NCBI GenBank assembly: GCA_026984835.1
Contig: JALSRI010000178.1
Location: 10,430-74,429 of the forward strand
Reading direction: 5' to 3'
DNA length: 64,000 bases
Source: Thiohalobacter sp.
GTDB taxonomy: Bacteria; Pseudomonadota; Gammaproteobacteria; DSM-19610
In this document: in pieces, positions 17,253-60,955 of the stretch
Position numbering within the stretch: position 1 is the first letter of the stretch
Layout: each line of letters starts with the position of its first letter
The notes under the pieces: generated by a model
Databases searched by the model: none
Told to the model about the DNA's origin: nothing
What the model saw: the letters and a program-made list of their open reading frames with translations, nothing else
Made by a program: the position numbers and the translations under genes

Positions 17253-17255
17253 GGT

Positions 17256-23358: not shown

Positions 23359-23365
23359 GGGGACG

Positions 23366-24766
23366 CTACAGCTCGAACACGTCGTTCAGGCCGGGCATGT
23401 GTACCCGGGTGTCCTGAAGGTGGCTGGCGAAATGCCGCATCACCTCTTCCTCGCCGTGTACCAGGATGCAGTGCTCGGGGCCGCCGGTCTGGCGGTACCA
23501 GGCCAGCAGTTCGTCGCGGTCGGCGTGCGCGGAAAAACCGCCTATGGTATAGAGGCGGGCCCGTACCGGAATGTCCTCGTGGAAGATCCGCACCTTGTCG
23601 GCGCCGTCGATGATGCGCCGCGCCAGGGTGCCGCGCGCCGCGTAGCCGACGAAGATGACGCTGGAATCATCGCGCCACAGGTTGTGGCGCAGGTGGTGGC
23701 GCACGCGGCCGCCGGTGCACATGCCGGAGCCGGCCATGATGACGGCACCGCCGCCGATGTTGTTCAGCGCGATGGACTGGGCGGTCTCGCGGGTGAAGTG
23801 CAGGCCCGGCAGCGAGAAGGGGTCGTTGCCTTCCCGGAACAGTTCGGCAGTCCGGGCGTCGTAGCATTCCGGGTGGCGCTCGAAGATCCGGGTGGCGGAG
23901 ATGGCCATGGGGGAATCCAGGAACACCTGCATGCTGGCCGGCAGCCGGCCCTGATCCACGCCTTCGTGCAGGAAGTAGAGGATCTCCTGGGCGCGTTCCA
24001 GGGCGAAAGTGGGGATGATCACGTTGCCGCCGCGGCGGAACGTGTCCTCGATGCCGCTGTAGAGTTCCTCGATGGAGGGCTTGAGCTGCTTGTGCAGGCG
24101 GTCGCCGTAGGTGGTCTCCATGACCACCACGTCGGCGTGCGGCGGCGTGGCCGGGTCGCGCAGCAGGGCGCGGCCGGAGTAGCCGAGGTCGCCCGAGAAC
24201 AGCACGCTGCGGCGACGGCCGCCTTCCTCCAGCTCCAGGAAGATACTGGCCGAGCCCAGGATGTGGCCGGCGTCGAGGAAGGTGGCGCGGATGCCGGGAG
24301 CGATCTCCAGCGGACTGCCGTAGACGGCGCTGCGGCCGAAGAACTCCATGCCGTTCAAGGCATCGAGCAGGTTGTACAGGGGGTCGACTTCCCGTTGCGG
24401 GTGGTGGTGGCCGTGTGCGCGCCGGGCCTTGCGCGACTGGTACTCGGCTTCTTCCTCCTGCAGGTGGGCAGCGTCGAGCATGACCAGGCGTGCCAGCTCG
24501 CGGCTGGCCGCGGTGGTGATGATTTCGCCCTGGAAGCCGCGTTTGGCCAGCAGCGGTATGCGGCCGCAGTGGTCGAGGTGGGCGTGGGTGAGCAGCAGGT
24601 AGTCGATGTCGGCCGGCTCGAAGCCGAAGGGTGCCGCGTTTTCCTCGGCCAGTTCGCGGCCGCCCTGATACAGGCCGCAGTCGATGAGGATACGCTTGCC
24701 ATTGCATTCCAGCAGGTGACAGGAGCCGGTGACTTCGTGGTCGGCGCCGTGGAAGGAGATTTTCAT
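23366..24766 (-). CDS. MBL-fold metallo-hydrolase with beta-CASP / RNA-specificity domain
   Basis: HAHLDHCG motif, then beta-CASP-type motifs and a C-terminal FSAHAD. ATG 24766 (MKISFHGA) chosen because the upstream extension is Arg/Ser-rich junk. Confidence 0.8.
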   Translation of the reverse strand: MKISFHGADHEVTGSCHLLECNGKRILIDCGLYQGGRELAEENAAPFGFEPADIDYLLLTHAHLDHCGRIPLLAKRGFQGEIITTAASRELARLVMLDAAHLQEEEAEYQSRKARRAHGHHHPQREVDPLYNLLDALNGMEFFGRSAVYGSPLEIAPGIRATFLDAGHILGSASIFLELEEGGRRRSVLFSGDLGYSGRALLRDPATPPHADVVVMETTYGDRLHKQLKPSIEELYSGIEDTFRRGGNVIIPTFALERAQEILYFLHEGVDQGRLPASMQVFLDSPMAISATRIFERHPECYDARTAELFREGNDPFSLPGLHFTRETAQSIALNNIGGGAVIMAGSGMCTGGRVRHHLRHNLWRDDSSVIFVGYAARGTLARRIIDGADKVRIFHEDIPVRARLYTIGGFSAHADRDELLAWYRQTGGPEHCILVHGEEEVMRHFASHLQDTRVHMPGLNDVFEL

Positions 24767-24794
24767 GGTCTGTTGTTCCTCGTCGTGCAGGGGG

Positions 24795-25757
24795 TCAATC
24801 GAACAGCGGGGTTCCGTTGGCCTGGTGCCAGCGCTGGATGCCTTCCCAGGCGTCCAGCGCCGATTCCGCGAACCAGAACAAGTCCCGGTCCTCGTCGTCG
24901 ATGACGCCTTCCGCGGCGAGGAAGTCAAAGTCGACGACGCGTCGCCAGTAGGCCTCGCCCATCAGCACCACCGGCAGTGGCTTTATCTTGCGTGTCTGAA
25001 TCAGTGTCAGCGTCTCGAACAACTCGTCCAGGGTTCCGTAGCCACCGGGGAAGGCGACCAGCGCACGGGCGCGCAGCAGGAAGTGCAGCTTGCGCAGGGC
25101 AAAGTAATGGAATCGGAAGCACAGCCCGGGGGTGAGATAGGGATTGGGAAACTGTTCGTGGGGCAGGGTGATGTTGAGGCCGATGGTCTTGGCGCCCGCT
25201 TCCCAGGCGCCGCGGTTGGCCGCTTCCATCATGCCGGGCCCTCCGCCGGTCATCAGCACCACGCGCGAATCCTGTGGGCCGCTGCCGCTGTCGCCCACCA
25301 GGCGGCCGAACTCCCGGGCGATGTCGTAGAAACGGCTCTTGTCGAGAATGCGCCGGGCGATATCCAACTGACGTTTGAGCGCGGCGTCGGCGGGGCTGGC
25401 CTGCAGCGCCCGTTCGAGTTCCTTTACCCTGCGGCGCGCCATGGCCGGTTCGTGAATGCGGGTGCCGCCGAACACGACGATGGTGTGGCGGATACTGTGC
25501 TGTTCCAGCAGCAGTTCCGGCTTGCTGTAGTCGAGTTGCAGGCGGACTCCGCGGGTGGCGCCCTGGCGCAGAAAGTCGATATCCGCGTCGGCTGGCCGGT
25601 AGGACGGGTTTTCCATGAGTGCCTGCACCCGGTCATGGGCGCCGGCATCGTCCTCGATTGCCTTGGGCGTCTGCCAGGGAAGCTTCTCGTGGCGTCGGAT
25701 CGGGTGGGGTGGCGGCGGTATCGACAGATCGTCCCGCGGTGGTGGCTGCTTGCTCAA
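24795..25757 (-). CDS. LOG / TIGR00730 family Rossmann protein (nucleotide 5'-monophosphate nucleosidase-like)
   Basis: GGGPGMMEAANRGA and PGGYGTLDELFE motifs. Candidate TTG start at 25757 overlaps the pta stop (TTGA); the alternative is ATG at 25616. Confidence 0.75.
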   Translation of the reverse strand: MSKQPPPRDDLSIPPPPHPIRRHEKLPWQTPKAIEDDAGAHDRVQALMENPSYRPADADIDFLRQGATRGVRLQLDYSKPELLLEQHSIRHTIVVFGGTRIHEPAMARRRVKELERALQASPADAALKRQLDIARRILDKSRFYDIAREFGRLVGDSGSGPQDSRVVLMTGGGPGMMEAANRGAWEAGAKTIGLNITLPHEQFPNPYLTPGLCFRFHYFALRKLHFLLRARALVAFPGGYGTLDELFETLTLIQTRKIKPLPVVLMGEAYWRRVVDFDFLAAEGVIDDEDRDLFWFAESALDAWEGIQRWHQANGTPLFD

Positions 25758-26707
25758 GCTCGTTCCTCCCCCTCGTGATGCATGATCACGGCCAGTGCCG
25801 CCGCAGCCAGCCGCGCGACCGGCGGGTCGGACCGTGAGGGTAGCATGATGGGAACCCGTGCGCCGACCACGATGCCGGCCAGGGTGGCGCCGGCCAGGTA
25901 CTCCAGGTCCTTGGCGAGGATGTTGGCGGCATTCAGGTCCGGCGCCAGCAGGATGTCCACGTCGCCGGACACCGGACTGTCGATGTGCTTGATGTGGGCC
26001 GCTTCCGCCGAAATGGCGTTGTCGAAGGCCAGCGGGCCGTCGACGACGGCGTGCAGGATCTGACCGCGCTCGGCCATCTTGCTCAGGCAGGCGGCGTCGA
26101 TGGTGGAGGCGATGGCGGGCTTGACTACCTCCACGGCGGACAGGGCGGCCACCTTGGGGCGTTCGACGCCCAGCAGGCGTGCCAAGTCGATGGCGTTGCG
26201 CAGGATGTCGGCCTTGATGGCCAGATCGGGGGCGATGTTGATGGCGGCGTCGGTGATGAACAGCAGCTTGTCGTAGCTCGGCAGTTCGGTCACGAACACG
26301 TGGCTGACCCGCTTGCCGGTCCGCAGTCCGGCCAGTACCGGATGCATCAGGGCGTCGGTGTGGATCCAGCCCTTGGCCAGCGCCGCGACTTCGCCGCGCT
26401 GAGCCAGTTCGACGCCCAGGCGCGCGGCTTCCTGCTCCGTATCGGCCGCGATCAGGCGCTGCGCGTCGAGGGAGCGCCCCAGCGTCCCACACAGGGCGCG
26501 GACGCGCCGAGGGTCGCCAATCAGTACCGGTTCCACCAGGCCGGCATCATGGGCCTCCATCATGCCCTGCAGGACGTGACTTTCCTCGGCGTTGACGACG
26601 GCGACGGGGATGGGGCCGTAGCGGCGGGCCCGCTCCAGGTAGGCCTGCAGCCGCGGGCAGGCCCGGGCAGCGGCCGGAGTGGCTGGTTCCCGTGGCGGAG
26701 CGGACAC
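25754..26707 (-). CDS. pta: phosphate acetyl/butyryl transferase family protein
   Basis: PTA_PTB-like sequence (ITDAAINIAP, DGPLAFDNA, LLAPDLNAANILAK). GTG 26707 lies 2 nt after the ppsA stop. Confidence 0.8.
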   Translation of the reverse strand: MSAPPREPATPAAARACPRLQAYLERARRYGPIPVAVVNAEESHVLQGMMEAHDAGLVEPVLIGDPRRVRALCGTLGRSLDAQRLIAADTEQEAARLGVELAQRGEVAALAKGWIHTDALMHPVLAGLRTGKRVSHVFVTELPSYDKLLFITDAAINIAPDLAIKADILRNAIDLARLLGVERPKVAALSAVEVVKPAIASTIDAACLSKMAERGQILHAVVDGPLAFDNAISAEAAHIKHIDSPVSGDVDILLAPDLNAANILAKDLEYLAGATLAGIVVGARVPIMLPSRSDPPVARLAAAALAVIMHHEGEERA

Positions 26708-26709
26708 GA

Positions 26710-29166
26710 TCAGGTGTCCCCGGGCCCTTGCTTCGCGGTCTGCAGGCGTGCTTCCGCCTCCACCACGCGGCGCAGGGTGGCAAGCACGGTGTCCGGATTG
26801 AGGCTGATGGAGTCGATACCGATACCGACCAGGTATTCCGCCACCTCGGGGTAGTCCGAGGGCGCCTGGCCACAGATGCCGCTGTGGCGCCGGTTGCGGC
26901 GGCAACCCTCGACTGCCCAGCGGATCATCTTCAACACACCGGGGTCGCGTTCGTCGTAGTCGAAGGCCAGGATCTCGCTGTCACGGTCCACGCCCAGGGT
27001 GAGCTGGGTGAGGTCGTTGGAACCGATGCTGAAGCCGTCGAACAGTTCACTGAATTCGTCGATCTCGACCACGTTGTTGGGTATCTCGCACATCACGTAG
27101 ATCTTCAGGCCATTGTCGCCGCGTACCAGGCCGTGTGCAGCCATGCTGTCGATGACCTTGCGACCCTCCGGTACGCGCCGGCAGAAGGGGATCATCAGGA
27201 TGATGTTGTCCATGCCGATCACTTCGCGGGCGCGCTTCATGGCGGCGCACTCGAGGGCGAAGCCGTCGGCATAGTCCGGATGCGTGTAGCGGGCCGCACC
27301 GCGGAAACCGATCATCGGGTTGTCCTCGACCGGTTCGAAGGTCTTGCCGCCCAGCAGGGTGGCGTACTCGTTGGTCTTGAAATCACTCATGCGCACCACG
27401 CATGGCCGTGGCCACACCGACGCGGCCAGGGTGGCCACCCCCTCGGAAAGGGTCTTGACGAAAAAATCGACCGGGTCGTCGTAGGCAGCGCTAAGGACGC
27501 CCAGCGCCTCGCGGGTCCGGGCATCGACGCGGTCCGGGTGCCTGAGTGCCATCGGGTGCGCCTTGATGTATTCATTGATGATGAATTCCATGCGCGCCAG
27601 GCCGATGCCGTCCACCGGCAGGGCGGCCAGGCTGAAGGCCTGGTCAGGGTCGCCGAGGTTCATCATGATCCTGGTCATCGGTCGCGGCAGCTCGCCGAGA
27701 TCGGTCTCCTCGATGTCGTAGTCGAGGATGCCTTCGTAGACCTTGCCGGTCTCGCCCTCGGCGCAGCTGACGGTGACCGGCTGACCGTCGCCAAGCACCC
27801 TGGTGGCGTCCTCGGCGCCCACCACGGCGGGAATGCCGAGCTCACGCGAGACGATAGCAGCGTGACAGGTGCGCCCGCCGCGGTTGGTGACGATGGCGGC
27901 AGCGGTCTTCATCACCGGCTCCCAGTCCGGGGTGGTGGTGTCGGCCACCAGCACCTCGCCGGGCCGGAAATCGGCGAGATGGCCGACGTCGGCGATGACG
28001 TGCACCTTGCCGGCGCCGATGCGGGTGCCGACGGCCCGGCCCTGGACCAGCACACGGGATCTCGCCTTGAGGTGATAGAGGCGCAGTATGCTGTCCTTCT
28101 TCTGGGACTCCACCGTCTCCGGGCGCGCCTGCACCATGTAGAGCTGGCCGTCGATGCCGTCCCTGGCCCATTCCATGTCCATGGGTTTGTGGAAACCGGC
28201 CTGGCGGGAATAGTGCTTCTCGATCTTGATGGCGTAGTCGGCCAGCACCATGACATCGTCGTCCGAAATGCAGAAACGCGCGCGTTCTGTGGGCGTGGTG
28301 TCGATATTGCGTGTGTACTCGACGGCGATGTTGTCCGTGTTGAGGGTGTCGGTGAACACCATTTTCTGCTCTTTGGCGCCGAGCCTGCGCTTGAGTACCG
28401 CCCGGCAGCCTTTCTCGAAGGTGGGCTTGTGCACGTAGAAGCTGTCCGGATCGATGGTGCCCTGGACCACGTTCTCGCCCAGCCCCAGCGCCGCGTTGAT
28501 GAACACCACGTCGCGGAAGCCGGTTTCGGTGTCCAGCGAGAACATGACGCCGCTGGCGCCCTGGTCGCTGCGGACCATCTTCATGACGACGACACACAGG
28601 TAGACCCTGTAGTAGTCGAATCGGTTGTCGTACTTGTAATGAATGGAGCGGTCGGTGAAATTGGAGGCCAGGCAGCGCTTGTAGGCGTCGAGCAGGGCGT
28701 CGTCTCCGCTGATGTGCAGGTAGGTATCGTTCTGGCCAGCGAACGAGGCTTCGGGCGAGTCTTCCGCTGTCGCCGAGGAACGCACCGCCAGTGACACGTC
28801 GTCGCCGTATTCCTGCCTGAGCCGCGCGTACTGGGCAAGGATGTCCGCTTTCAGATCGTCGGGCAGGGTGCAGCCATAGACGATCTCCCGGGCCCTGGCG
28901 CCGCGCGTCTGCAGGTCCCTGACATCGTCGGGATCGAGCCCGTCCAGTGCCTGGTGCAGCCTCGGCCAGGCCTCGTTGGCATCCAGCACATAACGGTAGG
29001 CCGCGGCGGTTACCGCGAATCCATTGGGAACGCGAACGCCTTCGCTGGTGAGATTGCGGTACATCTCCCCCAGGCTGGCGTTCTTGCCGCCCACCTCGGG
29101 GATGTCGTCGATACCGATTTCGCCGAACCAGCGAGTATAGGCTGGCCTGTCTTTTGTCGCTGCCAT
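26710..29166 (-). CDS. ppsA: phosphoenolpyruvate synthase (pyruvate, water dikinase)
   Basis: 818 aa. N-terminus GGKNASLGEM, phosphohistidine loop GGRTCHAAIVSRELGIPAVVG, C-terminal PEP-utilising domain. Confidence 0.95.
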   Translation of the reverse strand: MAATKDRPAYTRWFGEIGIDDIPEVGGKNASLGEMYRNLTSEGVRVPNGFAVTAAAYRYVLDANEAWPRLHQALDGLDPDDVRDLQTRGARAREIVYGCTLPDDLKADILAQYARLRQEYGDDVSLAVRSSATAEDSPEASFAGQNDTYLHISGDDALLDAYKRCLASNFTDRSIHYKYDNRFDYYRVYLCVVVMKMVRSDQGASGVMFSLDTETGFRDVVFINAALGLGENVVQGTIDPDSFYVHKPTFEKGCRAVLKRRLGAKEQKMVFTDTLNTDNIAVEYTRNIDTTPTERARFCISDDDVMVLADYAIKIEKHYSRQAGFHKPMDMEWARDGIDGQLYMVQARPETVESQKKDSILRLYHLKARSRVLVQGRAVGTRIGAGKVHVIADVGHLADFRPGEVLVADTTTPDWEPVMKTAAAIVTNRGGRTCHAAIVSRELGIPAVVGAEDATRVLGDGQPVTVSCAEGETGKVYEGILDYDIEETDLGELPRPMTRIMMNLGDPDQAFSLAALPVDGIGLARMEFIINEYIKAHPMALRHPDRVDARTREALGVLSAAYDDPVDFFVKTLSEGVATLAASVWPRPCVVRMSDFKTNEYATLLGGKTFEPVEDNPMIGFRGAARYTHPDYADGFALECAAMKRAREVIGMDNIILMIPFCRRVPEGRKVIDSMAAHGLVRGDNGLKIYVMCEIPNNVVEIDEFSELFDGFSIGSNDLTQLTLGVDRDSEILAFDYDERDPGVLKMIRWAVEGCRRNRRHSGICGQAPSDYPEVAEYLVGIGIDSISLNPDTVLATLRRVVEAEARLQTAKQGPGDT

Positions 29167-37302: not shown

Positions 37303-37896
37303 ATGGATCTCCACGCACTGGTGTACAGCACCTCGCCGCAGTGGTCGCAGTTCGGTCTGCCGCTCGTGTTCGCGGGCGCCCTGCTGGAGGGGGAAACGGT
37401 GGTGCTGCTGGCGGGGGTGCTCTGCCATCGCGGGCTTCTGCCGCTGGAGTGGACGGTCGTGCTGGCGGCTGCCGGTGCCTTCACGGGAGACCAGACCTGG
37501 TTTCATCTGGGGCGCCGCTACGGTCTGCGTGCCCTGTCCCGTTTTCCATGGCTGGCGCGACGCGCAGCGCAGGTGCGGCCCTGGGTCGAACAGCGCGCCG
37601 ACTGGATCGCCGCCACGTCGCGTTTCGTCTACGGGACCCGCACCGTGGCGCCGTTGCTGCTGGGCATGCACGGTTATCCGTCCCCGCGTTTCCTCCTCGT
37701 CAATTCGTTCAGCGCGCTGCTGTGGGCCGTCGCGGTGGTCGGCGCCGGTTACCTCGTCGGTGCGGGTGCCGAACAGCTGTTCGGGCGTGTCCGCCACATC
37801 GAGCAGCTGCTGCTGGTGGTCGGTGGGCTCATGCTGCTGCGCTGGTGGCTGCGGCGCAGGGAGACCGGCGGTTCTTCCAGTGAGGGCGGCAAATGA
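37303..37896 (+). CDS. DedA family membrane protein
   Basis: GETVVLLAGVL, GDQTWFHLGRRYG and YGTRTVAP motifs typical of the SNARE-associated/DedA family. Confidence 0.75.
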   Translation: MDLHALVYSTSPQWSQFGLPLVFAGALLEGETVVLLAGVLCHRGLLPLEWTVVLAAAGAFTGDQTWFHLGRRYGLRALSRFPWLARRAAQVRPWVEQRADWIAATSRFVYGTRTVAPLLLGMHGYPSPRFLLVNSFSALLWAVAVVGAGYLVGAGAEQLFGRVRHIEQLLLVVGGLMLLRWWLRRRETGGSSSEGGK

Positions 37897-39293
37897 CGGA
37901 GTTGAGTTCCACGCTGGAGGTCATCTGGGCGGCGTTGTTGCACCTGGCGACGGTTGTGGGCGTCCTGCTGGCACTGCTGCTGGTGGCGCAGGTGCTGCGC
38001 AGCCCGCGGACGCCGGCCGCGACCATCGGCTGGCTGCTCGCCATCCTGGTCGTGCCGGTGGCCGGTATTCCGCTCTACCTCGCCTTCGGCGAGCGCAAGG
38101 TGCGGGCACAGATCCGGCGCAAGGCCAGGATCGAATTGCCGGACACGCCTGATACCCACGACCACCCGCTGCACAGCCTGCTGGTGTCGTTGGGAATTCC
38201 GTCCTCCAGTCCCGGCAACCGGGTCGCTTTCCATGCCGATGAAGAACAGGCCCGCCAGGCGTTGTTCGCCATGTTGGATGGCGCCCGGCAGTCGATCGAC
38301 ATCGCCATCTTCATCCTGGGCGACGACCGGGTCGGGCGGGAGATCCTGACACGCCTGGAGCACAAGGCCGGCCAGGGGGTGCGGGTGCGGCTGTTGCTGG
38401 ATGGGGTGGGATCGTTCCAGTTGCCGCGGCACGCGCTGCAGCCATTGCGGGCGCAGGGGGGAAGGGTGGCCTGGTTCATGCCGGTGGTGCACCGCCCGTT
38501 GCGGGGCAGGACCAACCTGCGCAACCACCGCAAGCTGGTCATCGTCGACGGTGGGCAGGTGTGGACGGGCGGGCGCAATCTCGCCACCGAGTACCTGGGC
38601 CCCGGTTGTGACGGTGGTTGCTGGATCGATCTGAGTTTCTGCCTGCAAGGCCCCGGGGTGGCCGTTTGTCGTGCTGTGTTCGAGGCGGACTGGCGGTTTG
38701 CGACCGGTGACCGGAGCGACGTCGGGCTCGTGCCCGTACCCGCCGCCGATGGGGCGAGCCGCGTGCAGGTGATCCCTTCGGGGCCGGACGTGCGGGACGA
38801 CCCGATCTACGCCGCCCTGCTGACGGCTGCCTTCGAGGCGAGACAGCGGATCCTGATCGTCACGCCCTACTACGTACCGGACCCCGGGGTGCAGGAGGCC
38901 TTGCGGCTGGCCGCACTGCGTGGGGTGCGGGTCGAGCTGATTCTGCCGCTGCGTTCCAATCATCGCCTGGCAGACATTGCCCGCAATCGCTACCTGCGTG
39001 AACTGGCGGCGGCCGGTGCGGTTCTCTGGTTTCTGCCCGAGGTCATGATTCACGCCAAGGCCGTGGTGGTGGACAACGGCTTTGCCATGGCCGGTACCGC
39101 CAACATGGATATTCGCAGCCTGTTCCTGAACTACGAGGTGGTGTGCGCTTTTTATAGCCCCGCCGATATCGTCTGGCTGACAAGCTGGCTGGAGTCGCTG
39201 CGTGACCGCTGTCGGCGCCACCGTCCGCCGCCGGCCGGCGTACTCGGGGATATCCTGGAGGGGCTGGTACTGCTGGGCGCCTACCAGTTGTGA
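37893..39293 (+). CDS. cls: cardiolipin synthase (PLD superfamily)
   Basis: Two N-terminal TM helices and two HKD motifs (NHRKLVIVDG, IHAKAVVVDN). 4-nt overlap with dedA. Confidence 0.9.
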   Translation: MTELSSTLEVIWAALLHLATVVGVLLALLLVAQVLRSPRTPAATIGWLLAILVVPVAGIPLYLAFGERKVRAQIRRKARIELPDTPDTHDHPLHSLLVSLGIPSSSPGNRVAFHADEEQARQALFAMLDGARQSIDIAIFILGDDRVGREILTRLEHKAGQGVRVRLLLDGVGSFQLPRHALQPLRAQGGRVAWFMPVVHRPLRGRTNLRNHRKLVIVDGGQVWTGGRNLATEYLGPGCDGGCWIDLSFCLQGPGVAVCRAVFEADWRFATGDRSDVGLVPVPAADGASRVQVIPSGPDVRDDPIYAALLTAAFEARQRILIVTPYYVPDPGVQEALRLAALRGVRVELILPLRSNHRLADIARNRYLRELAAAGAVLWFLPEVMIHAKAVVVDNGFAMAGTANMDIRSLFLNYEVVCAFYSPADIVWLTSWLESLRDRCRRHRPPPAGVLGDILEGLVLLGAYQL

Positions 39294-39441: not shown

Positions 39442-40632
39442 TCAGCGCAGGGAACGGTAGCCCAGGTGCTGGCCGCGGCGCGACAGCACCAGCTGCCACA
39501 GCTGGCCCTGGCCGGAGCGGAACAGCCCGGCGCAGAGGTGCAGGTAGTATTTCCACATGCGATAGAAACGCACGTCGTAGCGGTGGCGCAATTCGGGCCA
39601 GGCGGCGTCGAAGTTTTGCCACCAGGCCATGAGGGTCGGTACATAGTCGGCGCCGAAGTTGTGCCAGTCCTGGATCACCAGCTGCGGTTCGATCGCGGCA
39701 CTGATCTGGCGCGCCGAGGGCAGCACGCCGTTGGGGAAGATATAGCGGTCGATCCAGGGGTCACTGCCGCGGCTGGTCTCGAAGTTGCCGATGGTGTGCA
39801 GCAGAAACAGCCCGTCCTCCGCCAGCAGGCGGTGCACGGTGTCGAAATAGGTGTCGTAGTTCTTCGGCCCGACGTGCTCGAACATGCCGACCGAGACGAT
39901 CTTGTCGAACCGGCCGCGCTGCTCGCGGTAGTCCCGCAGCGCGATCTCCACCGGCAGGCCGGCGCAGCGTTGCTGCGCCAGCCGCTGCTGTTCGCGCGAC
40001 ACGGTGATGCCCGTCACCCGGACCCCATAGTGGCGGGCGGCGTGGCTGGCCAGGCCGCCCCAGCCACAGCCGATGTCCAGCAGGTGTTCGCCGGGCTGCA
40101 GGTCCAGCTTGCGGCAGATCAGGTCCAGCTTGGCCAGCTGGGCATCGGCGAGGTTGTCGGCTGTGGCCCAGTAGCCGCAGCTGTAGCTCATGGTGGGGTC
40201 GAGCATGGCCTGATAGATGTCGTTGCCGATGTCGTAGTGGCGCTCACCGACCTCGAAGGCGCGCCGGCCCGCCTGGCGATTGACGAGCAGGTTGTGCAGC
40301 AGGCTGAGCGCGCCGGCCAGTAACAGCCGCAGGCGGGGCAGGAGGCGGATACGGCGGTCGATGTCGGCGCGCAGCAGGCGCTCGAAGAGTACGTCGAGCT
40401 GCCCGGCGTCCCACAACCCGTCCATGTAGGCCTCGCCGAAGCCGAGCGAGCCGCGACTGAGGACGCGGCGGTAGGTGGCGGGATCGTGGATACGGATATC
40501 CCAGGGGCGGTGGCCGTTCAGACGCACGTCTGCCTCTGCCAGCAGTTCGACCAGTATCCGCGGGGCGGCAGCCGACTTTGCGGCGGGTGCGCCCGGGTTC
40601 AGGTCGCCATTGATGTGGGGAGTGTAATCCAT
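39442..40632 (-). CDS. cfa: cyclopropane-fatty-acyl-phospholipid synthase
   Basis: SAM motif LLDIGCGWGGLA, FDKIVSVGMFEHVG, C-terminal YLxxCAGxFR. ATG 40632 preceded by GGAGGG. Confidence 0.9.
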   Translation of the reverse strand: MDYTPHINGDLNPGAPAAKSAAAPRILVELLAEADVRLNGHRPWDIRIHDPATYRRVLSRGSLGFGEAYMDGLWDAGQLDVLFERLLRADIDRRIRLLPRLRLLLAGALSLLHNLLVNRQAGRRAFEVGERHYDIGNDIYQAMLDPTMSYSCGYWATADNLADAQLAKLDLICRKLDLQPGEHLLDIGCGWGGLASHAARHYGVRVTGITVSREQQRLAQQRCAGLPVEIALRDYREQRGRFDKIVSVGMFEHVGPKNYDTYFDTVHRLLAEDGLFLLHTIGNFETSRGSDPWIDRYIFPNGVLPSARQISAAIEPQLVIQDWHNFGADYVPTLMAWWQNFDAAWPELRHRYDVRFYRMWKYYLHLCAGLFRSGQGQLWQLVLSRRGQHLGYRSLR

Positions 40633-40758
40633 ACTGCCCTCCATGAACGGGTACCGACCGGCTGTCAGTGACCCACGGCCCCACGGCCCAACGGGCCACG
40701 ACAATCGTGTCGAAGTTGATAAATTGGGGCTGGCTGCAGGAATGTCAAGCCCGGCCGA

Positions 40759-50302: not shown

Positions 50303-50883
50303 GCGATGCACAGCAGGACAAGCCGACGCCGTCCGGGCGTCTGGTGCTCGCCATCGGCATCTACGACGACGAGAACAAGGCCACCCGGGCCATCGAACGG
50401 CTGATCGCCGACGATTTTCCCATGGACCGCATCTCCCTGCTGCGCAAGAGCGGCGGCCTGGGTGACGACATGCTGGGGCTGGCCTACACCAACACCGCCG
50501 AGCGGGTGAAGACCTGGGGACGGCACGGTGCCGCGTGGGGGGCATTGTGGGGACTGCTGGCCGGCGCCACCGGCCTGTTCGTGCTGCCCGGCATCGGGCC
50601 GCTGCTGGCGGCCGGGCCGGTGGTCGAGGCCCTGGGTGGCGCCATCGCCGGGGCGGCCGTGGCCGGCGGCGCCATGGCCGCCGGCGCCGCCCTGACACAG
50701 CTGGCCAGCGCCCTGCACCGCATGGGCATTCCCGCAGAAGACATCAAGCAGATCCACGAGGCCATCGAGCAGGACCGCTATGTGCTGATTCTGCATTGCC
50801 AGCCCTCGGAGGCCGAACACTGCGCCTCGCGCCTGGGCTGGTCCGGCGCCGACCCGGTGCTGGTGATGCCGGTGGAGCACTGA
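50299..50883 (+). CDS. DUF1269-like / general-stress-type membrane-associated protein
   Basis: GTG overlaps the fba stop (GTGA). Same three-part layout as 47694-48197, with Gly/Ala-zipper core WGALWGLLAGATG...GGAIAGAAVAGGAMAAGA. Confidence 0.55.
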   Translation: MSDAQQDKPTPSGRLVLAIGIYDDENKATRAIERLIADDFPMDRISLLRKSGGLGDDMLGLAYTNTAERVKTWGRHGAAWGALWGLLAGATGLFVLPGIGPLLAAGPVVEALGGAIAGAAVAGGAMAAGAALTQLASALHRMGIPAEDIKQIHEAIEQDRYVLILHCQPSEAEHCASRLGWSGADPVLVMPVEH

Positions 50884-50916
50884 GGCTCTGGCATACGGAG
50901 GCTCTGGCACAGGCAG

Positions 50917-50943
50917 GGTGGGGTGAGCGCAGCGAACCCCACC
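50917..50943 (+). repeat. REP-like palindromic element, type 1 (GGTGGGGTgagcgcagcgaACCCCACC)
   Basis: 8-bp stem with 11-nt loop. Near-identical copy at 51096-51122. Confidence 0.8.
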
Positions 50944-51047
50944 ACGACACCGGTGCGGTGGATACCGCCGCGGGGGATCGAGTGCTTCCGCTCCACCACA
51001 CCATCCACGTCGTTGCCTCCCGGTCGGTGGTTCTGCCGGCCGGTCAT

Positions 51048-51075
51048 GGTGGGGTTCCCTTCGGTTACCCCGCCC
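51048..51075 (-). repeat. REP-like palindromic element, type 2 (inverted orientation)
   Basis: The reverse complement, GGGCGGGGTAACCGAAGGGAACCCCACCATGAC, matches 60988-61020 closely. Confidence 0.75.
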
Positions 51076-51095
51076 TACGGGCTTCGTTGCGGCAG

Positions 51096-51122
51096 GGTGG
51101 GGTGAGCACAGCGAACCCCACC
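51096..51122 (+). repeat. REP-like palindromic element, type 1
   Basis: GGTGGGGTgagcacagcgaACCCCACC, one mismatch to the copy at 50917. Confidence 0.8.
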
Positions 51123-51170
51123 GGCGGTGTCGGAGGCGGCTGCCCCGGGGGTTGACGTGCAGACGCTCCA

Positions 51171-51779
51171 CTAGTCCTGCGGAGGGTCTTGCGCCAGGTC
51201 GTCGAACCGGTGGCGTATCTTGTCCAGTTCCTTTCTCCAGGCTTCCGGGTCGCCGTAGTCCATGAAATGGCTGAAGCGGCTGTGCGGTTCCAGCACCCGG
51301 CTGGCGTGCTTGATGGGGCACCAGTACTGTTCCGTGCGGGCCGCCACCTCTCGCACGAAGGCGATGACGCCGTTGCCATAGCCGCAGTACACGCAGTTGA
51401 GTTTCTCGATGGCATTCAGGTAGGCGAGCTGGTGCCGGTCGATGATGACGTAGTCGGCGCGCCGCACCCGCGGGATGCCGTAGACGCGGAAACAGGTGTG
51501 CTGGTAGATCACCACCATCAGGTCGAGCAGCGCGAAGGGCACCACCAGGCTGTAGATGACGGGGGCGGTGAGGATGTGGGCGGGGCGGGCCTCGCGCAGG
51601 TAGCGCAGCAGGCTGATCTTCTGGCGCCGGTGCAGGCGGCGCACGGCCCGCGCGAAGCGCACGTGGTGGCCGCGAAGCTGGTAACTCAGCGCCTGCTGGC
51701 GGGCGTTGAGCTCCTCTTCGAGCTGTTTCTCCAGCTCGCGGATCTTCGCGACAATCGAGGTGATGTTCTCGTTGATCAT
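51171..51779 (-). CDS. hypothetical protein: coiled-coil N-terminus, one TM helix, Cys-rich C-domain
   Basis: 202 aa with clean coding composition. CFRVYG...NCVYCGYGNG...WCPIKH cysteine pattern. No family recognised. Confidence 0.55.
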   Translation of the reverse strand: MINENITSIVAKIRELEKQLEEELNARQQALSYQLRGHHVRFARAVRRLHRRQKISLLRYLREARPAHILTAPVIYSLVVPFALLDLMVVIYQHTCFRVYGIPRVRRADYVIIDRHQLAYLNAIEKLNCVYCGYGNGVIAFVREVAARTEQYWCPIKHASRVLEPHSRFSHFMDYGDPEAWRKELDKIRHRFDDLAQDPPQD

Positions 51780-51833
51780 GGGGTGCGCTCCGGGCCTGGC
51801 CGGCCCGCCGGCGGATGTGGCGCACCAGGGCTG

Positions 51834-52757
51834 TCAGGCGGGTTCGTGAGACGCCAATACTGACCCAGGTTCGAGTGCACTGGCAAGCAGCGGCGCCAGC
51901 GGCAGGCGGTTGCTCGGGTGCGGCACGCTGTCGGTGCTGCACACGTGGGTGACGCCGGCCGCCGCCAGGCGCTGCTCGGCGTCGCCCACGAACAGCGCGT
52001 GGGTGACCAGCACCGACAGCGAGGCGGGGCGGTGGCGGGCCAGCGCGCGCGCCGTCTCTTCCAGGGTGCGTCCGGTGCTGGCGACGTCGTCGACCAGCAC
52101 CAGGTTGCGGCCGCCGTAGTCGGCCGCGGGGAGGGAGATGCGCACGTCGCGGTCGCCGCGACGCTCCTTGCGGGCGACCCGGTAGTCGAAGCCGCCGCGC
52201 GCGGCGATGGCGGCGACCCACTGTTCGGATTCCTCGTCGGGCCCGATCAGGAAGGGGCGGTCGCCGTGCACGGCCAGGTAGTCGGCCATGGGCGCGGTGG
52301 CGCTGAGGGTGACGGCGCGCGCCACCGGCACGGCCTCCTGCAGCCGGTGCACGCGGTGCAGGTGCGGGTCGACGGTGATCAGGGCGTCGAAGTGGCGCGC
52401 CAGCATGGCGCCGACGACACGCTGGCTGACCGCCTCGCCGGGATGGAAGGCGATGTCCTGGCGCATGTAGGCCAGGTAGGGCGCCACCAGGGTCAGGTGA
52501 CGGGCGCCGAGCTGGCGCGCAGTGACCGCCGCCAGCTCCAGTTCCACCAGCTTGTCGTTGGGCCGGTCGAGGCTGCGGCAGAAGATCACCTGCTCGGGCA
52601 GCGGCAGCGGCAGGCGCACCTTGCTCTCGCCGTCGGGGAAGTGGTGGACCTCCACTTCCGCGTAGGGCAGGCCGGCCGCCCCGGCCAGGCGGCGGGCGGG
52701 GTCGCGGTAGTCGGGGAAGCCGAGAAGGGTGCGGGAGCCTGCTTTGGGATCTGCCAT
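51834..52757 (-). CDS. ribose-phosphate pyrophosphokinase-like phosphoribosyltransferase
   Basis: FPDGESKVRL, VDPHLH, and PRPP loop LVLVDDVASTGRTL. Diverges from canonical Prs in the R5P loop. Confidence 0.75.
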   Translation of the reverse strand: MADPKAGSRTLLGFPDYRDPARRLAGAAGLPYAEVEVHHFPDGESKVRLPLPLPEQVIFCRSLDRPNDKLVELELAAVTARQLGARHLTLVAPYLAYMRQDIAFHPGEAVSQRVVGAMLARHFDALITVDPHLHRVHRLQEAVPVARAVTLSATAPMADYLAVHGDRPFLIGPDEESEQWVAAIAARGGFDYRVARKERRGDRDVRISLPAADYGGRNLVLVDDVASTGRTLEETARALARHRPASLSVLVTHALFVGDAEQRLAAAGVTHVCSTDSVPHPSNRLPLAPLLASALEPGSVLASHEPA

Positions 52758-52775
52758 CTGTGTGTTCCGTCGATC

Positions 52776-52804
52776 TGGTGGGGTTCGCTGCGATCACGTC
52801 ACCC
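52776..52804 (-). repeat. REP-like element, type 1, degenerate left arm
   Basis: The reverse complement contains GATCGCAGCGAACCCCACC. Lies between the TP-like and Prs-like genes. Confidence 0.6.
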
Positions 52805-52844
52805 TGGAGTGATTGTGGGCAGGGATGCCGGATTGATATCGGCC

Positions 52845-54362
52845 TCAGCCTTCTACGCTGAAGCCGCTGTCGCGTTCGGCGGCGGCGCAGGCGAAGCGGA
52901 AATCGGCCTCGAACTCGGCGTGGATGGCATACAGGGGCTCGCCGCGTTTCACGCTGTCGCCCACCTTGTGGTACAGGTCCACGCCGGCACCCTTGTCCAT
53001 GGGGGCGCCGGCCAGGCGTGCGATGCGGGCCATGCGCAGGTTGTCGATGGCTGACACAGTGCCGGTGCGCGGCGAGACGACCTTGCGGCACAGGCGGCCC
53101 GGTTCGAGCCGCTCCCGGCGTGGGCCCTGGGCGGCGACGATGGCCTGCATCTTTTCCAGCGCGCGGCCGGAGTCGAGGATGTCACGGGCCAGCGCATAGC
53201 CCTGGCCGCCACGCACATCGGGGTCGAATTCGAGGATGCGGCCGGCCAGTTGCAGGGCTTTCTCGCGCAGATCGGCCGGCGCCTGCGGATCGCGGCGCAA
53301 CACGCGCATGACGTCGCGCGCTTCCAGCACCGGGCCGATGCCGTTTCCGATCGGCTGGTGACCGTCGGTGAGGACCACTTCCAGGTGCAGGCCGCTGCGG
53401 TCGCCGACGAACTCGAACAGCTTGCGCAGCTGCAGCGCATCCTGCTGGCGGCGCACCTTGGCGGTGGGTCCGACCGGGATGTCGATCAGCAGGTGGGTGG
53501 CGCCGGCGGCCAGCTTCTTGGACAGGATGGAGGCCACCATCTGGCCGGGCGAGTCCATGGACAGGGGGCGTTCCACCGAGATCAGGATGTCGTCCACCGG
53601 CGCCAGCCTGGCGGTGCCGCCCCAGGCCAGGCAGCCGCGCTGGATGTGCACGATCTCCTTGAGCCGGTCCGGCGGCAGTTCCACTTCGGCCAGCACTTCC
53701 ATGGTGTCGGCGGTGCCGGCCGGGGAAGTGATGGCACGGCTGGAGGTCTTGGGAATGGGCATGCCGTGGGCCGCCACGATGGGCACCACCAGCATGCTGG
53801 TGCGGTTGCCGGGAATGCCGCCGATGCAGTGCTTGTCGGCCACCAGCGGTTCACCCCAGTTGAGGCGTTCGCCGCTGTCGACCATGGCCTGGGTCAGGTG
53901 CAGCACTTCCTCGCGCTCCAGTCCGGTCTCGGCGCAGGCCACCAGGAAGGCTGCCATTTCGATCTTGGAATAGCGGTTCTCGACGATGTCGCGGGTGATG
54001 CCGGTATAGTCGTCACGGCCCAGACGCTCGCCGGCGATCTTGCGGTGCACCGCGTGCAGGGAGGCGGGCGGCTGGGCGTGGGCCACGCAGGCGGCGCTGC
54101 CTTCCGGCAACGCCAGTTGTTCGAAGGCCTGTTCGGACAGGCCCAGTTCCCCGGGCGCGGTGATGGCGTCGTCGTCGACCACGTTGAGCACCGCCAGCAC
54201 CGGCGCGCCGTTGCCCTCGACCCGGATCTCGACCTTGTTGAGGGCCTGGAAGCCCTCGCTGCGGTAGACCCGGCAGTTGCGGTTCAGGTAGGCAACGTTC
54301 TCGCGGTAGGTGTCGATGGCGACGCGCCGCAGTTGCAGCGAATGGGTGGTGTTCTGGTCCAC
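52845..54362 (-). CDS. thymidine phosphorylase family protein (AMP-phosphorylase-like subgroup)
   Basis: [37 protein letters not shown]. The N-terminal extra domain resembles the roughly 500-aa putative thymidine phosphorylase group. GTG 54362 is a provisional start. Confidence 0.75.
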
Positions 54363-54454
54363 GCGAAAGGTCTCCCCGTGCAGTCGTGCCAGTGTTGCAT
54401 CCCGGCCGCGCCGGCGCAACGCCGCCCGCGGCTCTTCGCCCGCGTGATGCGCGC

Positions 54455-55591
54455 TCAGCCCGCGTGCCGGTAGCGGTACAGGTACAGCCACTCGAAGAAA
54501 CGCTTGGCCAGGTGCAACAGGCGGCTGCGCAGCACCAAGGTGCGAGACGGGTTGCGGAAAACCAGGATGCCCGAGTCCAGGGTGTCGACGATGCAGACGA
54601 GTTCTGCGCGGAAGGTCGCGGTGGCGGGTTTTCCATCTAGCTCCGCCAGCAGGTTGTCGGCGGCGGCCACCGCTTGCAGGTCGGCCATGTGGGCCTGCTT
54701 GGGCATCCAGTCCGGGCCCGGGAAGCTGCCGCTGTCGCCGGCCACGTAGACGCGCTCGCTTTCGACCACCCGGCACTGCGCGTCGGCGCGGAACAGGCCG
54801 CCCTCCGAGAGGGGCAGGCCGCTGTCGGCGGCCCAGGCCGGACCCGTCATGCCCGGCATGAACAGGATCAGGTCGGCTTCGATGTCGCCGCCCTCGGTCT
54901 CCACCCGGTTCTCCGCGAAGCCCTTGATCTTGTGTCCGAGGTGCGTTTCGATGCCGCGCCGCCGCATCTCCGCCAGTAGCCCGCGCACCGCCTTTTCGCC
55001 CAGGCGCTTGCCCGGCTGCGGCGCCGGGTTGAAGAACACCAGCCGGAATCGCTCCCGTCGGCCTTCGCGACGCAACTGGGTGTCGAGGCCGAACAGCACT
55101 TCGAACATGGGGCCGCCGCGCATGGCCGAGGGCTCTTTCGGGTTGCCGCCGAACCCCACCGCGATGGTGCCCTGTTGCAGCGCGGCCAGCCGGTCGCGGA
55201 TCCGTTCGGCTGCTTCCACGCCCTCGCAGATCGTCAGCGCGTGTTCGATGCCGGGCAGCTTCCTGATGAAGCGGCCGCCGCTGGCGATCAGCAGGGCGTC
55301 GTTGTGCAGATCGCCATGGTCGGTATGCACCACGCGCCCGCCCCCGGACAGGCCGGTCACCGTGCCGGCGTGGAAGTTCAGCCGGTGCTTGCGCAGAAAG
55401 CCCTGCAGCGGGACGCGCAGGTCTTCGCCGCGGCGCAGACCCGACGGGATCCAGATCAGGCCCGGGTAGTAGAGGAACTCGTCGCGCGGTGCGACCAGGG
55501 TGATGTCGGCGTCCGGTGCCTTGCGGCGCAGCCGCCGTGCGGCGGTGAGTGCGGCAAAGCCGGCTCCGATGACGGTGATCGAACGTGACAT
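54455..55591 (-). CDS. NAD(P)/FAD-dependent oxidoreductase (NDH-2 / sulfide:quinone reductase-like)
   Basis: [17 protein letters not shown] dinucleotide fold, a second GG motif, VYVAGD. ATG 55591. Confidence 0.7.
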
Positions 55592-55726
55592 GCTGCGCCT
55601 CCTGGCGGGATCCCGGCCGTGGATATTAGCAGAAACTGATATTGAGGGCGGCGCCGGCCGTTTCAAGCGGGCGTTCTGTGGGAAAGGGGTTTCGGTGGTG
55701 GCGGCCGTTCGCGGGTGGTGCGGACA

Positions 55727-55996
55727 TCATCCGGGCGTCTTGCCGGACAGGTGGTAGGCGAAGGCGATGACCTGGGCGACGGCGAGATACAGGTTCTCGG
55801 GGATTTCCTCACCCAGGTCGACGCGCGCGAGCAGTTCCGCCAGCGCCTCGTTCTCCTGCAACGGAATATCGTGGCGGCGGGCCAGCTCGACGATGCGTTC
55901 GGCGAGCGCATGGCGGCCCTTGGCGGTGACGCGCGGCGCCTGGCTGCCGTCGTATTCCAGCGCCACGGCCAGCAGCGGCGGATCGGCGTCCTTCAT
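55727..55996 (-). CDS. FlhB C-terminal-domain-like protein (EscU/YscU/HrcU family fragment)
   Basis: 89 aa: AVALEYD...APRVTAKG...ALAERIVELARRHDIPLQENEALAELL. 4-nt overlap with the upstream FliK-like gene. Confidence 0.7.
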   Translation of the reverse strand: MKDADPPLLAVALEYDGSQAPRVTAKGRHALAERIVELARRHDIPLQENEALAELLARVDLGEEIPENLYLAVAQVIAFAYHLSGKTPG

Positions 55997-60928: not shown

Positions 60929-60955
60929 GGTGGGGTTCGCTGCGCTCGCCCCACG
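60929..60955 (-). repeat. REP-like palindromic element, type 1 (inverted orientation)
   Basis: The reverse complement is GTGGGGCGAGCGCAGCGAACCCCACC. Confidence 0.75.

Follow-up and report, generated by a model that had tools for sequence, protein, structure and literature searches.

The window examined here, a stretch of 64,000 nucleotides from Thiohalobacter sp. (contig JALSRI010000178.1), carries four neighbouring genes that an earlier reading of the letters had taken for one uncharacterised module, encoding a flavoprotein, a homologue of thymidine phosphorylase (TP-like), a homologue of ribose-phosphate pyrophosphokinase (Prs-like) and a cysteine-rich (Cys-rich) membrane protein of 202 aa. 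The conserved unit is a two-gene cassette of the TP-like gene and, after it, the Prs-like gene, and in many lineages a ribonuclease-type beta-CASP gene accompanies it. Taken as a whole, the observations are probably best explained by a cassette that turns the ribose-phosphate of nucleoside 5'-monophosphates (NMPs) into phosphoribosyl pyrophosphate (PRPP), as judged from sequence comparison. The original prediction, which proposed nucleotide phosphorolysis and PRPP recycling, is largely supported for a unit of two or three genes, but not for a module of four.

A scan for relatives of the TP-like protein, with one genome per species, yielded at least 582 species genomes, and the best 80 loci, with TP-like proteins 67–80% identical, were used with 8-kb flanks as the sample for co-conservation. 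These are mostly from Gammaproteobacteria, a few being binned as Zetaproteobacteria, Burkholderiales, Nitrosomonas and Thermodesulfatator. Neighbours were detected by tblastn and de novo clustering of open reading frames (ORFs), with phmmer at E<=10 as the remote search. In 74 of the 80 loci the TP-like gene has the Prs-like gene as its immediate downstream neighbour; among the remaining ones, two have split or fragmentary Prs-like copies and one ends at a contig edge, and the next most frequent neighbour family is found in 13 loci at most. The flavoprotein is in none of the 80 and the Cys-rich protein in one, so that the claim of a four-gene module falls, whereas the linkage of the TP-like and Prs-like genes, which it contained, stands. 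The same order was found in an annotated plasmid collection, where tblastn returned 138 records. Ten non-fused loci were inspected (Azospirillum, Bradyrhizobium septentrionale, Legionella pneumophila, Pontibacter, a Dysgonomonadaceae bacterium, Variovorax RA8, Shinella, Sphingomonas sanxanigenens, Ralstonia and Sphingobium), and in eight of them the next gene after the TP-like one is the Prs-like gene, usually with a 4-nt overlap. This order is thus present in Alphaproteobacteria, Betaproteobacteria, Legionella and Bacteroidota plasmids, across three phyla, and the conservation of translational coupling over this range speaks for a joint function of the pair.

Some exceptions within the 80 loci can be described individually. 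In L027 (9523-10384) the Prs-like gene that comes after the TP-like gene is broken into two ORFs, and in L081 (9544-9876) it is reduced to a fragment, with a second copy 7 kb away; these copies are possibly pseudogenes or assembly errors. Two loci without a Prs-like gene (L010:9554-10991 and L012:9542-10969) have the TP-like gene followed by a 194-aa and a 267-aa ORF, which by eye are pyridoxamine-5'-phosphate-oxidase-like and MOSC-like and may constitute an alternative partner set.

Within the nucleoside phosphorylase II (NP-II) family, the TP-like protein falls in the 'putative thymidine phosphorylase' clade, scoring 702 bits against NF003338 (cut-off 434) and 624 bits against TIGR02645 (cut-off 434.6). 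All equivalog models for thymidine phosphorylase (TP) and pyrimidine-nucleoside phosphorylase (PyNP) are missed, with 205 bits against a cut-off of 269 for NF004490, 156 against 570.7 for TIGR02643, 136 against 559 for NF004747 and 192 against 409 for TIGR02644. Its closest solved relative is the AMP phosphorylase of Thermococcus kodakarensis (4GA5, E=2e-106), to which it is 44% identical (195 of 440 aligned residues), versus 29% to E. coli TP. The motif that had set the protein apart from DeoA is present at residues 176-188 (window 53799-53837), and its assignment to the archaeal AMP/NMP-phosphorylase branch is upheld by these identities and by the active-site signatures. In an alignment of 86 sequences, the pattern DxH(C/S)xGG(I/V)PG(N/S)(R/K)T and a second loop signature ending in (P/A)AGTAD are common to the bacterial family, the archaeal enzyme and the PhnN fusions described below; at these positions E. 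coli TP has DKHSTGGV-GDVTS and PMISGRGLGHTGGTLD. Both AMP phosphorylase loop signatures are found in the window protein together with the conserved N-terminal domain of about 100 residues, and the SILSKK base-binding segment and the phosphate-site Lys-His are retained. The T. kodakarensis enzyme, now described as an NMP phosphorylase, phosphorolyses AMP, CMP and UMP to ribose-1,5-bisphosphate (R15P) (PMC9700705). From this homology and from the gene fusions, we infer that the TP-like protein is a bacterial nucleoside-5'-monophosphate phosphorylase forming R15P.

Independent support for the proposed link to R15P and PRPP comes from widespread fusions with PhnN, the enzyme that forms PRPP from R15P and ATP (Hove-Jensen 2003, as cited in PMC9700705). 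The two fusion proteins that were domain-scanned, from Variovorax sp. SRS16 and Cupriavidus pauculus, begin with PhnN and continue with the TP-like domain; they score 180 bits for PhnN (TIGR02322, cut-off 156) and 590-604 bits for the TP-like part (NF003338). Identity between the TP-like domain of the fusions and the window protein is 45-48%. Clusters of fusion length (587-718 aa) number at least 120, most of the named ones carrying NCBI's PhnN name, and their hosts are Burkholderiales, Pseudomonas and alphaproteobacteria, among them Cupriavidus, Caballeronia, Paraburkholderia, Variovorax, Herbaspirillum, Bosea and Inquilinus. Since no phosphonate (phn) genes are present in the five fusion loci examined, R15P has no evident source there other than the fused TP-like domain. 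The fusion loci examined have no Prs-like gene, and no PhnN gene lies within 8 kb in the 80 Prs-linked loci, which suggests that the Prs-like protein and PhnN are alternative partners of the TP-like enzyme, with PRPP as their common output.

The same five fusion loci have a gene of the quinolinate phosphoribosyltransferase (QRPTase) family, nadC-like, upstream of the fusion (L087:4400-7395, L088:3651-7236, L094:4159-7046, L095:4161-7043 and L096:4159-6785). The gap between the two genes is 5-6 nt in four loci, and in Cupriavidus L088 a MarR gene lies between them; an NMT1-type ABC transporter and a MarR regulator are often found alongside. This arrangement suggests a closed cycle, in which an imported pyridine carboxylate would be ribosylated at the expense of PRPP, the nucleotide would be phosphorolysed and the R15P would be returned to PRPP. 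No description of such a QRPTase/fusion cycle was found in the literature.

The second protein of the cassette is a divergent ribose-phosphate pyrophosphokinase homologue, as had been proposed. It scores 369 bits against the subfamily model NF005537/PRK07199 (cut-off 322) and 165 against TIGR01251 (cut-off 113), and its nearest structures are the class III Prs enzymes 4TWB and 1U9Y (E ~1e-31). Across 75 family members, conservation of the FPDGE, RQD, DxH, PD, KxR and DDxxSTGxT motifs is 95% or higher, so that the protein should be catalytically active; a non-catalytic, PAP-like subunit was considered and rejected on the same grounds. Equally conserved among these members are the family-specific substitutions MRQD, VSQ, HLHR and GPDxESxQWV, the last of which replaces (A/S)PDxG(A/G) in the loop that follows the metal-binding Asp, with ES instead of GG or GA, a change that may bear on whether ribose 5-phosphate or R15P is the substrate.

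The proposed pathway would start from NMPs supplied by the breakdown of RNA or ribosomes by the beta-CASP nuclease. The TP-like enzyme would convert NMP and phosphate to the free base and R15P, and the Prs-like enzyme would carry out a PRPP-forming step, taking the role of PhnN in the fused versions. The net effect would be the conversion of NMP ribose-phosphate to PRPP and free bases, by which nucleotide and NAD pools might be rebuilt or re-balanced under low oxygen or in dormancy; alternatively, pentose phosphate could be passed to phosphoketolase and acetate kinase, giving phosphoketolase-based ATP formation. A more specific version is that the beta-CASP, TP-like and Prs-like proteins form a hitherto undescribed bacterial RNA-to-PRPP route, in which the Prs-like enzyme, as a re-tooled PRPP synthase, would phosphorylate R15P directly as a non-orthologous replacement of PhnN, at the cost of a single ATP-to-ADP step. 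It is put forward tentatively, as possible rather than likely; if true, cells starved of oxygen or in dormancy could use such a direct R15P route to bring their adenylate and NAD pools back into balance.

The beta-CASP partner was recognised in the plasmid collection, where a gene annotated as 'MBL (metallo-beta-lactamase) fold metallo-hydrolase' abuts or overlaps the TP-like gene in eight of the ten loci. These hydrolases have Beta-Casp and RMMBL (RNA-specificity) domains and resemble aCPSF1 and Cas14, with both scores below cut-off. The beta-CASP protein of the window, which has the same two domains, is 46.6% identical to the one encoded directly after the pair in L030. Its gene is part of a run (14745-29166) comprising ppsA, pta-like, LOG/TIGR00730-like, beta-CASP, ackA, P-type ATPase, phosphoketolase and glycogen phosphorylase genes, with scores of 1104 bits for PpsA and 1474 bits for phosphoketolase. 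The LOG/TIGR00730-like gene, which adjoins the beta-CASP gene, possibly encodes an NMP nucleosidase. The run is probably one operon, and it looks like an anaerobic-survival operon that joins RNA and NMP breakdown, glycogen use and ATP formation from acetyl-phosphate; it is also a possible sink for pentose phosphate. A search of the window for the FNR pattern gave four matches versus 0.24 expected, and the sole perfect palindrome among them, TTGATGCGGATCAA, is intergenic and stands ahead of this run (Table 1).

A low-oxygen setting has been documented for the rhizobial counterpart of the cassette. In Bradyrhizobium diazoefficiens, bll3117 (TP family), bll3116 (Prs) and bll3115 (MBL) are in the 62-protein core microoxic proteome, with protein log2 fold changes of 2.1, 4.4 and 2.9 and transcript fold changes of 5.1, 7.7 and 15.4, respectively (PMC6515984). 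The three genes form a predicted operon with a FixK2 box at -74, and in the fixK2 mutant bll3117 is down 6.6-fold and bll3115 30.6-fold; the FixK2 table also lists phosphoketolase, acetate kinase and oleate hydratase (PMC9104804). The pair on the Bradyrhizobium plasmid matches both NCBIfam models of the window genes. The plasmid cassettes have oleate hydratase, cyclopropane-fatty-acid (CFA) synthase, P-type ATPases, Usp, Hsp20 and ppsA among their neighbours, and the window has two Usp genes, a class I aldolase, a transaldolase, three P-type ATPases, a CFA synthase gene (39442-40704) and a phospholipase D (PLD)-type, cardiolipin-synthase-like gene (37893-39293). A low-oxygen or dormancy context for the cassette is therefore plausible, given the Bradyrhizobium microoxia and FixK2 data and the stress genes of the window; the low-oxygen connection gains from these data and from the FNR-boxed phosphoketolase operon.

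The surroundings of the plasmid cassettes are themselves recurrent. On the Variovorax, Sphingomonas and Ralstonia plasmids (L098, L100 and L101), and also in L091 and L097, the TP-like and Prs-like genes recur in a block with DUF2933, isoprenylcysteine carboxyl-methyltransferase-like and beta-CASP genes. Heavy-metal/copper P-type ATPases, oleate hydratase, CFA synthase and Hsp20 are encoded near this block, which suggests a mobile stress island. In Pontibacter (L092:1972-2817), the module has a second nuclease-type gene: immediately 5' of the beta-CASP, TP-like and Prs-like genes lies one whose product combines an ATP-cone with a PD-(D/E)XK (Mrr-like) nuclease domain. Inverted repeats and 8-mers were also searched for upstream of the TP-like gene, and were set aside, as they gave only lineage-restricted words such as GATGATGCGGTTTGA, found in 10-15 loci and probably due to shared ancestry or upstream coding sequence.

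Several points weigh against a cassette that carries NMPs through R15P to PRPP. The TP-like protein misses the archaeal AMP-phosphorylase equivalog TIGR03327, with 502.5 bits against a cut-off of 535. Because every canonical Prs catalytic motif is kept, the simplest expectation for the Prs-like enzyme would be the ordinary reaction of ribose 5-phosphate (R5P) and ATP to PRPP and AMP, which would leave no assigned enzyme between R15P and R5P or PRPP; neither the window nor the 80 flanks showed an R15P isomerase, PhnN or other R15P consumer. Only 5 of the 80 gammaproteobacterial-type loci have the beta-CASP gene next to the pair. No FNR/FixK box lies upstream of the window cassette within one mismatch, and such a box within 300 nt upstream of the pair is found in 4 of 76 related loci versus about 1.5 expected; conserved FNR control of the pair outside rhizobia is not supported. 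Finally, no biochemical study of the bacterial TP-like, Prs-like or PhnN-fusion proteins was found in the literature covered, which did not extend to the relevant reviews.

Automatic annotation names both proteins after ordinary salvage enzymes, and it could be argued that the pair is just that, a plain thymidine or pyrimidine-nucleoside phosphorylase beside a second standard PRPP synthetase, kept adjacent by a common role in salvage. The SILSKK segment, the phosphate-site Lys-His and the complete set of Prs motifs would all be accommodated. Such a pair is nevertheless decidedly unlikely, given the much lower identity to E. coli TP than to the NMP phosphorylase, the failure to reach any TP/PyNP equivalog and the AMP phosphorylase pattern of the active-site loops. 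Moreover, fusion to an R15P kinase would be senseless for a nucleoside phosphorylase, the product of which is ribose-1-phosphate, and the cross-phylum translational coupling points to a joint function. It could also be argued that PRPP is consumed rather than made, the TP-like protein being a TrpD-like phosphoribosyltransferase that joins an acceptor with PRPP (or R15P) to a ribonucleotide, fed by the Prs-like enzyme or PhnN, for the synthesis of a nucleotide or modified riboside phosphate under stress. PRPP would then be the common denominator of two PRPP-forming partners, the NP-II fold is common to TrpD, for which weak matches were obtained, and the NMP phosphorylase reaction is reversible in principle. 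This alternative is rather doubtful, however: the TrpD equivalog gives 46.7 bits against a cut-off of 199, the closest characterised homologue works in the direction of phosphorolysis, and the fused PhnN needs R15P, of which the TP-like domain is the only evident source in the five loci without phosphonate genes.

The homology to an archaeal pathway enzyme also brings to mind a shunt of archaeal type, in which R15P would be converted to ribulose-1,5-bisphosphate for the RuBisCO of the host, with the Prs-like protein as an accessory. Many hosts are indeed sulfur-oxidising or nitrifying autotrophs (Chromatiales, Thiogranum, Sedimenticola, Nitrosomonas and Bradyrhizobium). Against this, a search of the conserved neighbours in the 80 loci and of those parts of the window that are annotated, though not of whole genomes, gave no R15P-isomerase-like or RuBisCO gene, type III RuBisCO included; the cassette is common in non-autotrophs such as Legionella, Sphingomonads, Pontibacter and Dysgonomonadaceae, and the conserved partner forms PRPP and is no isomerase. 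A RuBisCO-directed shunt is accordingly given little chance, and the conversion of NMP ribose-phosphate to PRPP remains the preferred reading.

The preferred reading can be placed among known systems. The T. kodakarensis AMP/NMP phosphorylase (TK0352 in PMC9700705; PDB 4GA4-4GA6), which belongs to the archaeal pentose bisphosphate pathway, shares with the TP-like protein the NP-II branch, 44% identity over 440 residues, the extra N-terminal domain, the GG(V/I)PGN(K/R)T signature and the second loop signature; unlike it, the TP-like protein falls in a bacterial clade, just under the archaeal equivalog cut-off. The archaeal shunt proceeds through R15P isomerase and type III RuBisCO, whereas the bacterial partner would be PRPP-forming. 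The PhnN fusions resemble the window pair in that the TP-like proteins of both match NF003338 and are coupled to a predicted PRPP-forming activity; they differ in that this partner is a fused R15P kinase of guanylate-kinase fold, and in that their loci have a QRPTase gene upstream and no beta-CASP or stress genes. The bll3117-bll3116-bll3115 operon has the same order of TP family and Prs genes and a low-oxygen stress context, but it has beta-CASP as third cistron and a FixK2 box, whereas the beta-CASP gene of the window is 27 kb away from the pair, which has no FNR-type box; the Bradyrhizobium papers report expression, not function. The class III PRPP synthases of M. jannaschii (1U9Y) and S. 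solfataricus (4TWB) share the two-domain phosphoribosyltransferase fold and catalytic motifs with the Prs-like protein, which is however in a separate NCBIfam subfamily, PRK07199, with substitutions of its own. At the pathway level, the proposed TP-like route is also comparable to the E. coli AMP nucleosidase (Amn) and the PpnN/LOG-type NMP nucleosidases, which cleave NMPs to base and pentose phosphate and thereby adjust nucleotide pools; these enzymes are hydrolytic and not phosphorolytic, have unrelated folds and release R5P instead of R15P.

In the standing view, bacteria recover the ribose of nucleotides by way of nucleosidases, nucleoside phosphorylases and the pentose phosphate pathway, while NMP phosphorolysis to R15P is an archaeal trait, found also in the candidate phyla radiation (CPR) and tied to RuBisCO. 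The gene pair is already widely annotated and its rhizobial induction has been published, so that the window instance is a further member. No paper that assigns a function to the bacterial pair or mentions the PhnN fusions was found in the literature covered, two relevant reviews excepted, and the papers on the Burkholderia lxa locus do not mention the pair. If the proposal is true, the widespread cassette, also present on many plasmids, would represent a new branch of bacterial nucleotide salvage and a bacterial variant of the archaeal NMP shunt that ends in PRPP and not in RuBisCO. It would give functions to two large 'putative' families, explain the microoxia-induced operon of rhizobia and offer a biochemical handle on RNA recycling in non-growing, oxygen-limited bacteria.

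Table 1. Features of the window around the TP-like/Prs-like pair and in the distant phosphoketolase gene run
Feature	Position	Strand	Description
Flavoprotein gene	54455-55591	minus	378 aa; Pyr_redox_2; sulfide:quinone oxidoreductase (SQR)/type II NADH dehydrogenase (NDH-2)-like; upstream neighbour of the pair
TP-like gene	52845-54362	minus	505 aa; GTG start preceded by GGGGAGA; predicted NMP phosphorylase
Prs-like gene	51834-52757	minus	307 aa; PRK07199-type; predicted PRPP-forming
Cys-rich protein gene	51171-51779	minus	202 aa; single hydrophobic helix; downstream neighbour of the pair
Repetitive extragenic palindromic (REP)-type palindrome	52777-52803	minus	within the 87 nt that separate the TP-like and Prs-like genes; 3 mismatches to the 27-nt consensus
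Two REP copies	50917-50943 and 51096-51122	plus	convergent intergenic region 3' of the 202-aa gene; exact consensus matches
Beta-CASP gene	23366-24766	minus	466 aa; RNase-type metallo-beta-lactamase fold; candidate third partner, 27 kb from the pair
ppsA ... glgP gene run	14745-29166	minus	co-directional; putative operon; gene calls and Pfam families
FNR/Anr-type box TTGATGCGGATCAA	29253-29266	plus	perfect palindrome, about 93 nt upstream of the ppsA start codon

The four genes at 51171-55591 are all present as first described, co-directional on the minus strand, and a public ENA metagenome contig has identical gene calls. Their common strand, the short gaps between the ORFs (92, 87 and 54 nt) and the lack of a terminator-like minus-strand site between them would be in keeping with one operon whose four products serve one pathway. 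This is nonetheless very improbable, given the distribution of the two outer genes. No homologue of the flavoprotein was detected in the 80 loci, even with the remote search. In L104, a syntenic close relative from the same study, the order is AMMECR1, pentapeptide, Flg_hook, FlhB-like, TP-like, Prs-like, Cys-rich and aldolase, with no flavoprotein between the FlhB-like and TP-like genes; the flavoprotein gene is therefore probably a local insertion in the window. Its homologues of 68-74% identity lie inside cydAB operons in two of the three contexts sampled. The Cys-rich gene adjoins the pair only in close relatives, namely L104 and L002, a Thiogranum metagenome-assembled genome (MAG) that is the closest relative and the one positive case among the 80 loci, also with the remote search. 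Three distant Cys-rich homologues stand alone in unrelated contexts, never with the pair, two of them near Usp genes and one of these two also near acs and ackA. The Cys-rich protein belongs to a widespread stand-alone orphan family and is a lineage-specific neighbour here; both outer genes are independent members of a shared stress-island neighbourhood and not pathway steps.

The flavoprotein had been described as NDH-2/SQR-like. A Pyr_redox_2 protein is indeed encoded upstream of the TP-like gene, but membership of the SQR family is not borne out by model score, the match to type III SQR being weak (72.7 bits, cut-off 525). Two cysteines, C122 and C333, are invariant; the position equated with that of the middle redox cysteine of SQR is an invariant Arg in 120 homologues. 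Members of the family are found in cydAB-cydX-ybgE operons of a Thiobacillus MAG (L086:5001-6146) and a metagenome contig (L103:6001-7131), and the flavoprotein may serve cytochrome bd as a quinone-linked partner instead of oxidising sulfide.

The 202-aa protein agrees with its first description, as it has the four cysteines, a long N-terminal helix and one hydrophobic stretch at about residues 72-97 (best 19-residue hydropathy window 2.27, at residues 74-92). It has no match in Pfam or NCBIfam, and its AlphaFold2 model (mean confidence score, pLDDT, 75) gave no PDB fold match better than E=1.4. The family counts more than 7,800 homologues, in Gamma- and Alphaproteobacteria, Zetaproteobacteria and Spirochaetes. 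C96, C129, C132, C154 and H158 are invariant in 30 homologues, a C...CxxC...CPxxH pattern that may bind metal.

A scan for sigma-70 promoters and intrinsic terminators over 50800-55900 gave no minus-strand match. At 55620-55650, 30-60 nt upstream of the flavoprotein start, there is an AT-rich imperfect inverted repeat (ATATCAG-N6-CTAATAT, minus strand) in a genome of about 70% GC; it has no sigma-70 consensus match and may be an operator or promoter element. An anti-phage defence reading of the four genes was dropped after PADLOC models gave no match to any of the proteins at E<=0.01.

The REP elements had been said to flank the module and to sit inside it. The 27-nt palindrome GGTGGGGTGAGCRCAGCGAACCCCACC has four copies in the window versus 0 expected by chance, the three in Table 1 and one at 60929-60955 (minus, 2 mismatches). 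It is an imperfect palindrome, repeated, present in both orientations (two copies per strand) and intergenic in all four cases. Copies are found on the 3' flank of the cluster and within it, but none on the 5' flank (55592 onward), so that 'bracketed' is an overstatement; these are ordinary extragenic repeats and not borders of a gene unit. An 89-aa gene call of the public contig at 50778-51047 (minus), without a family match, runs over the REP copy at 50917-50943 and is probably no true gene.

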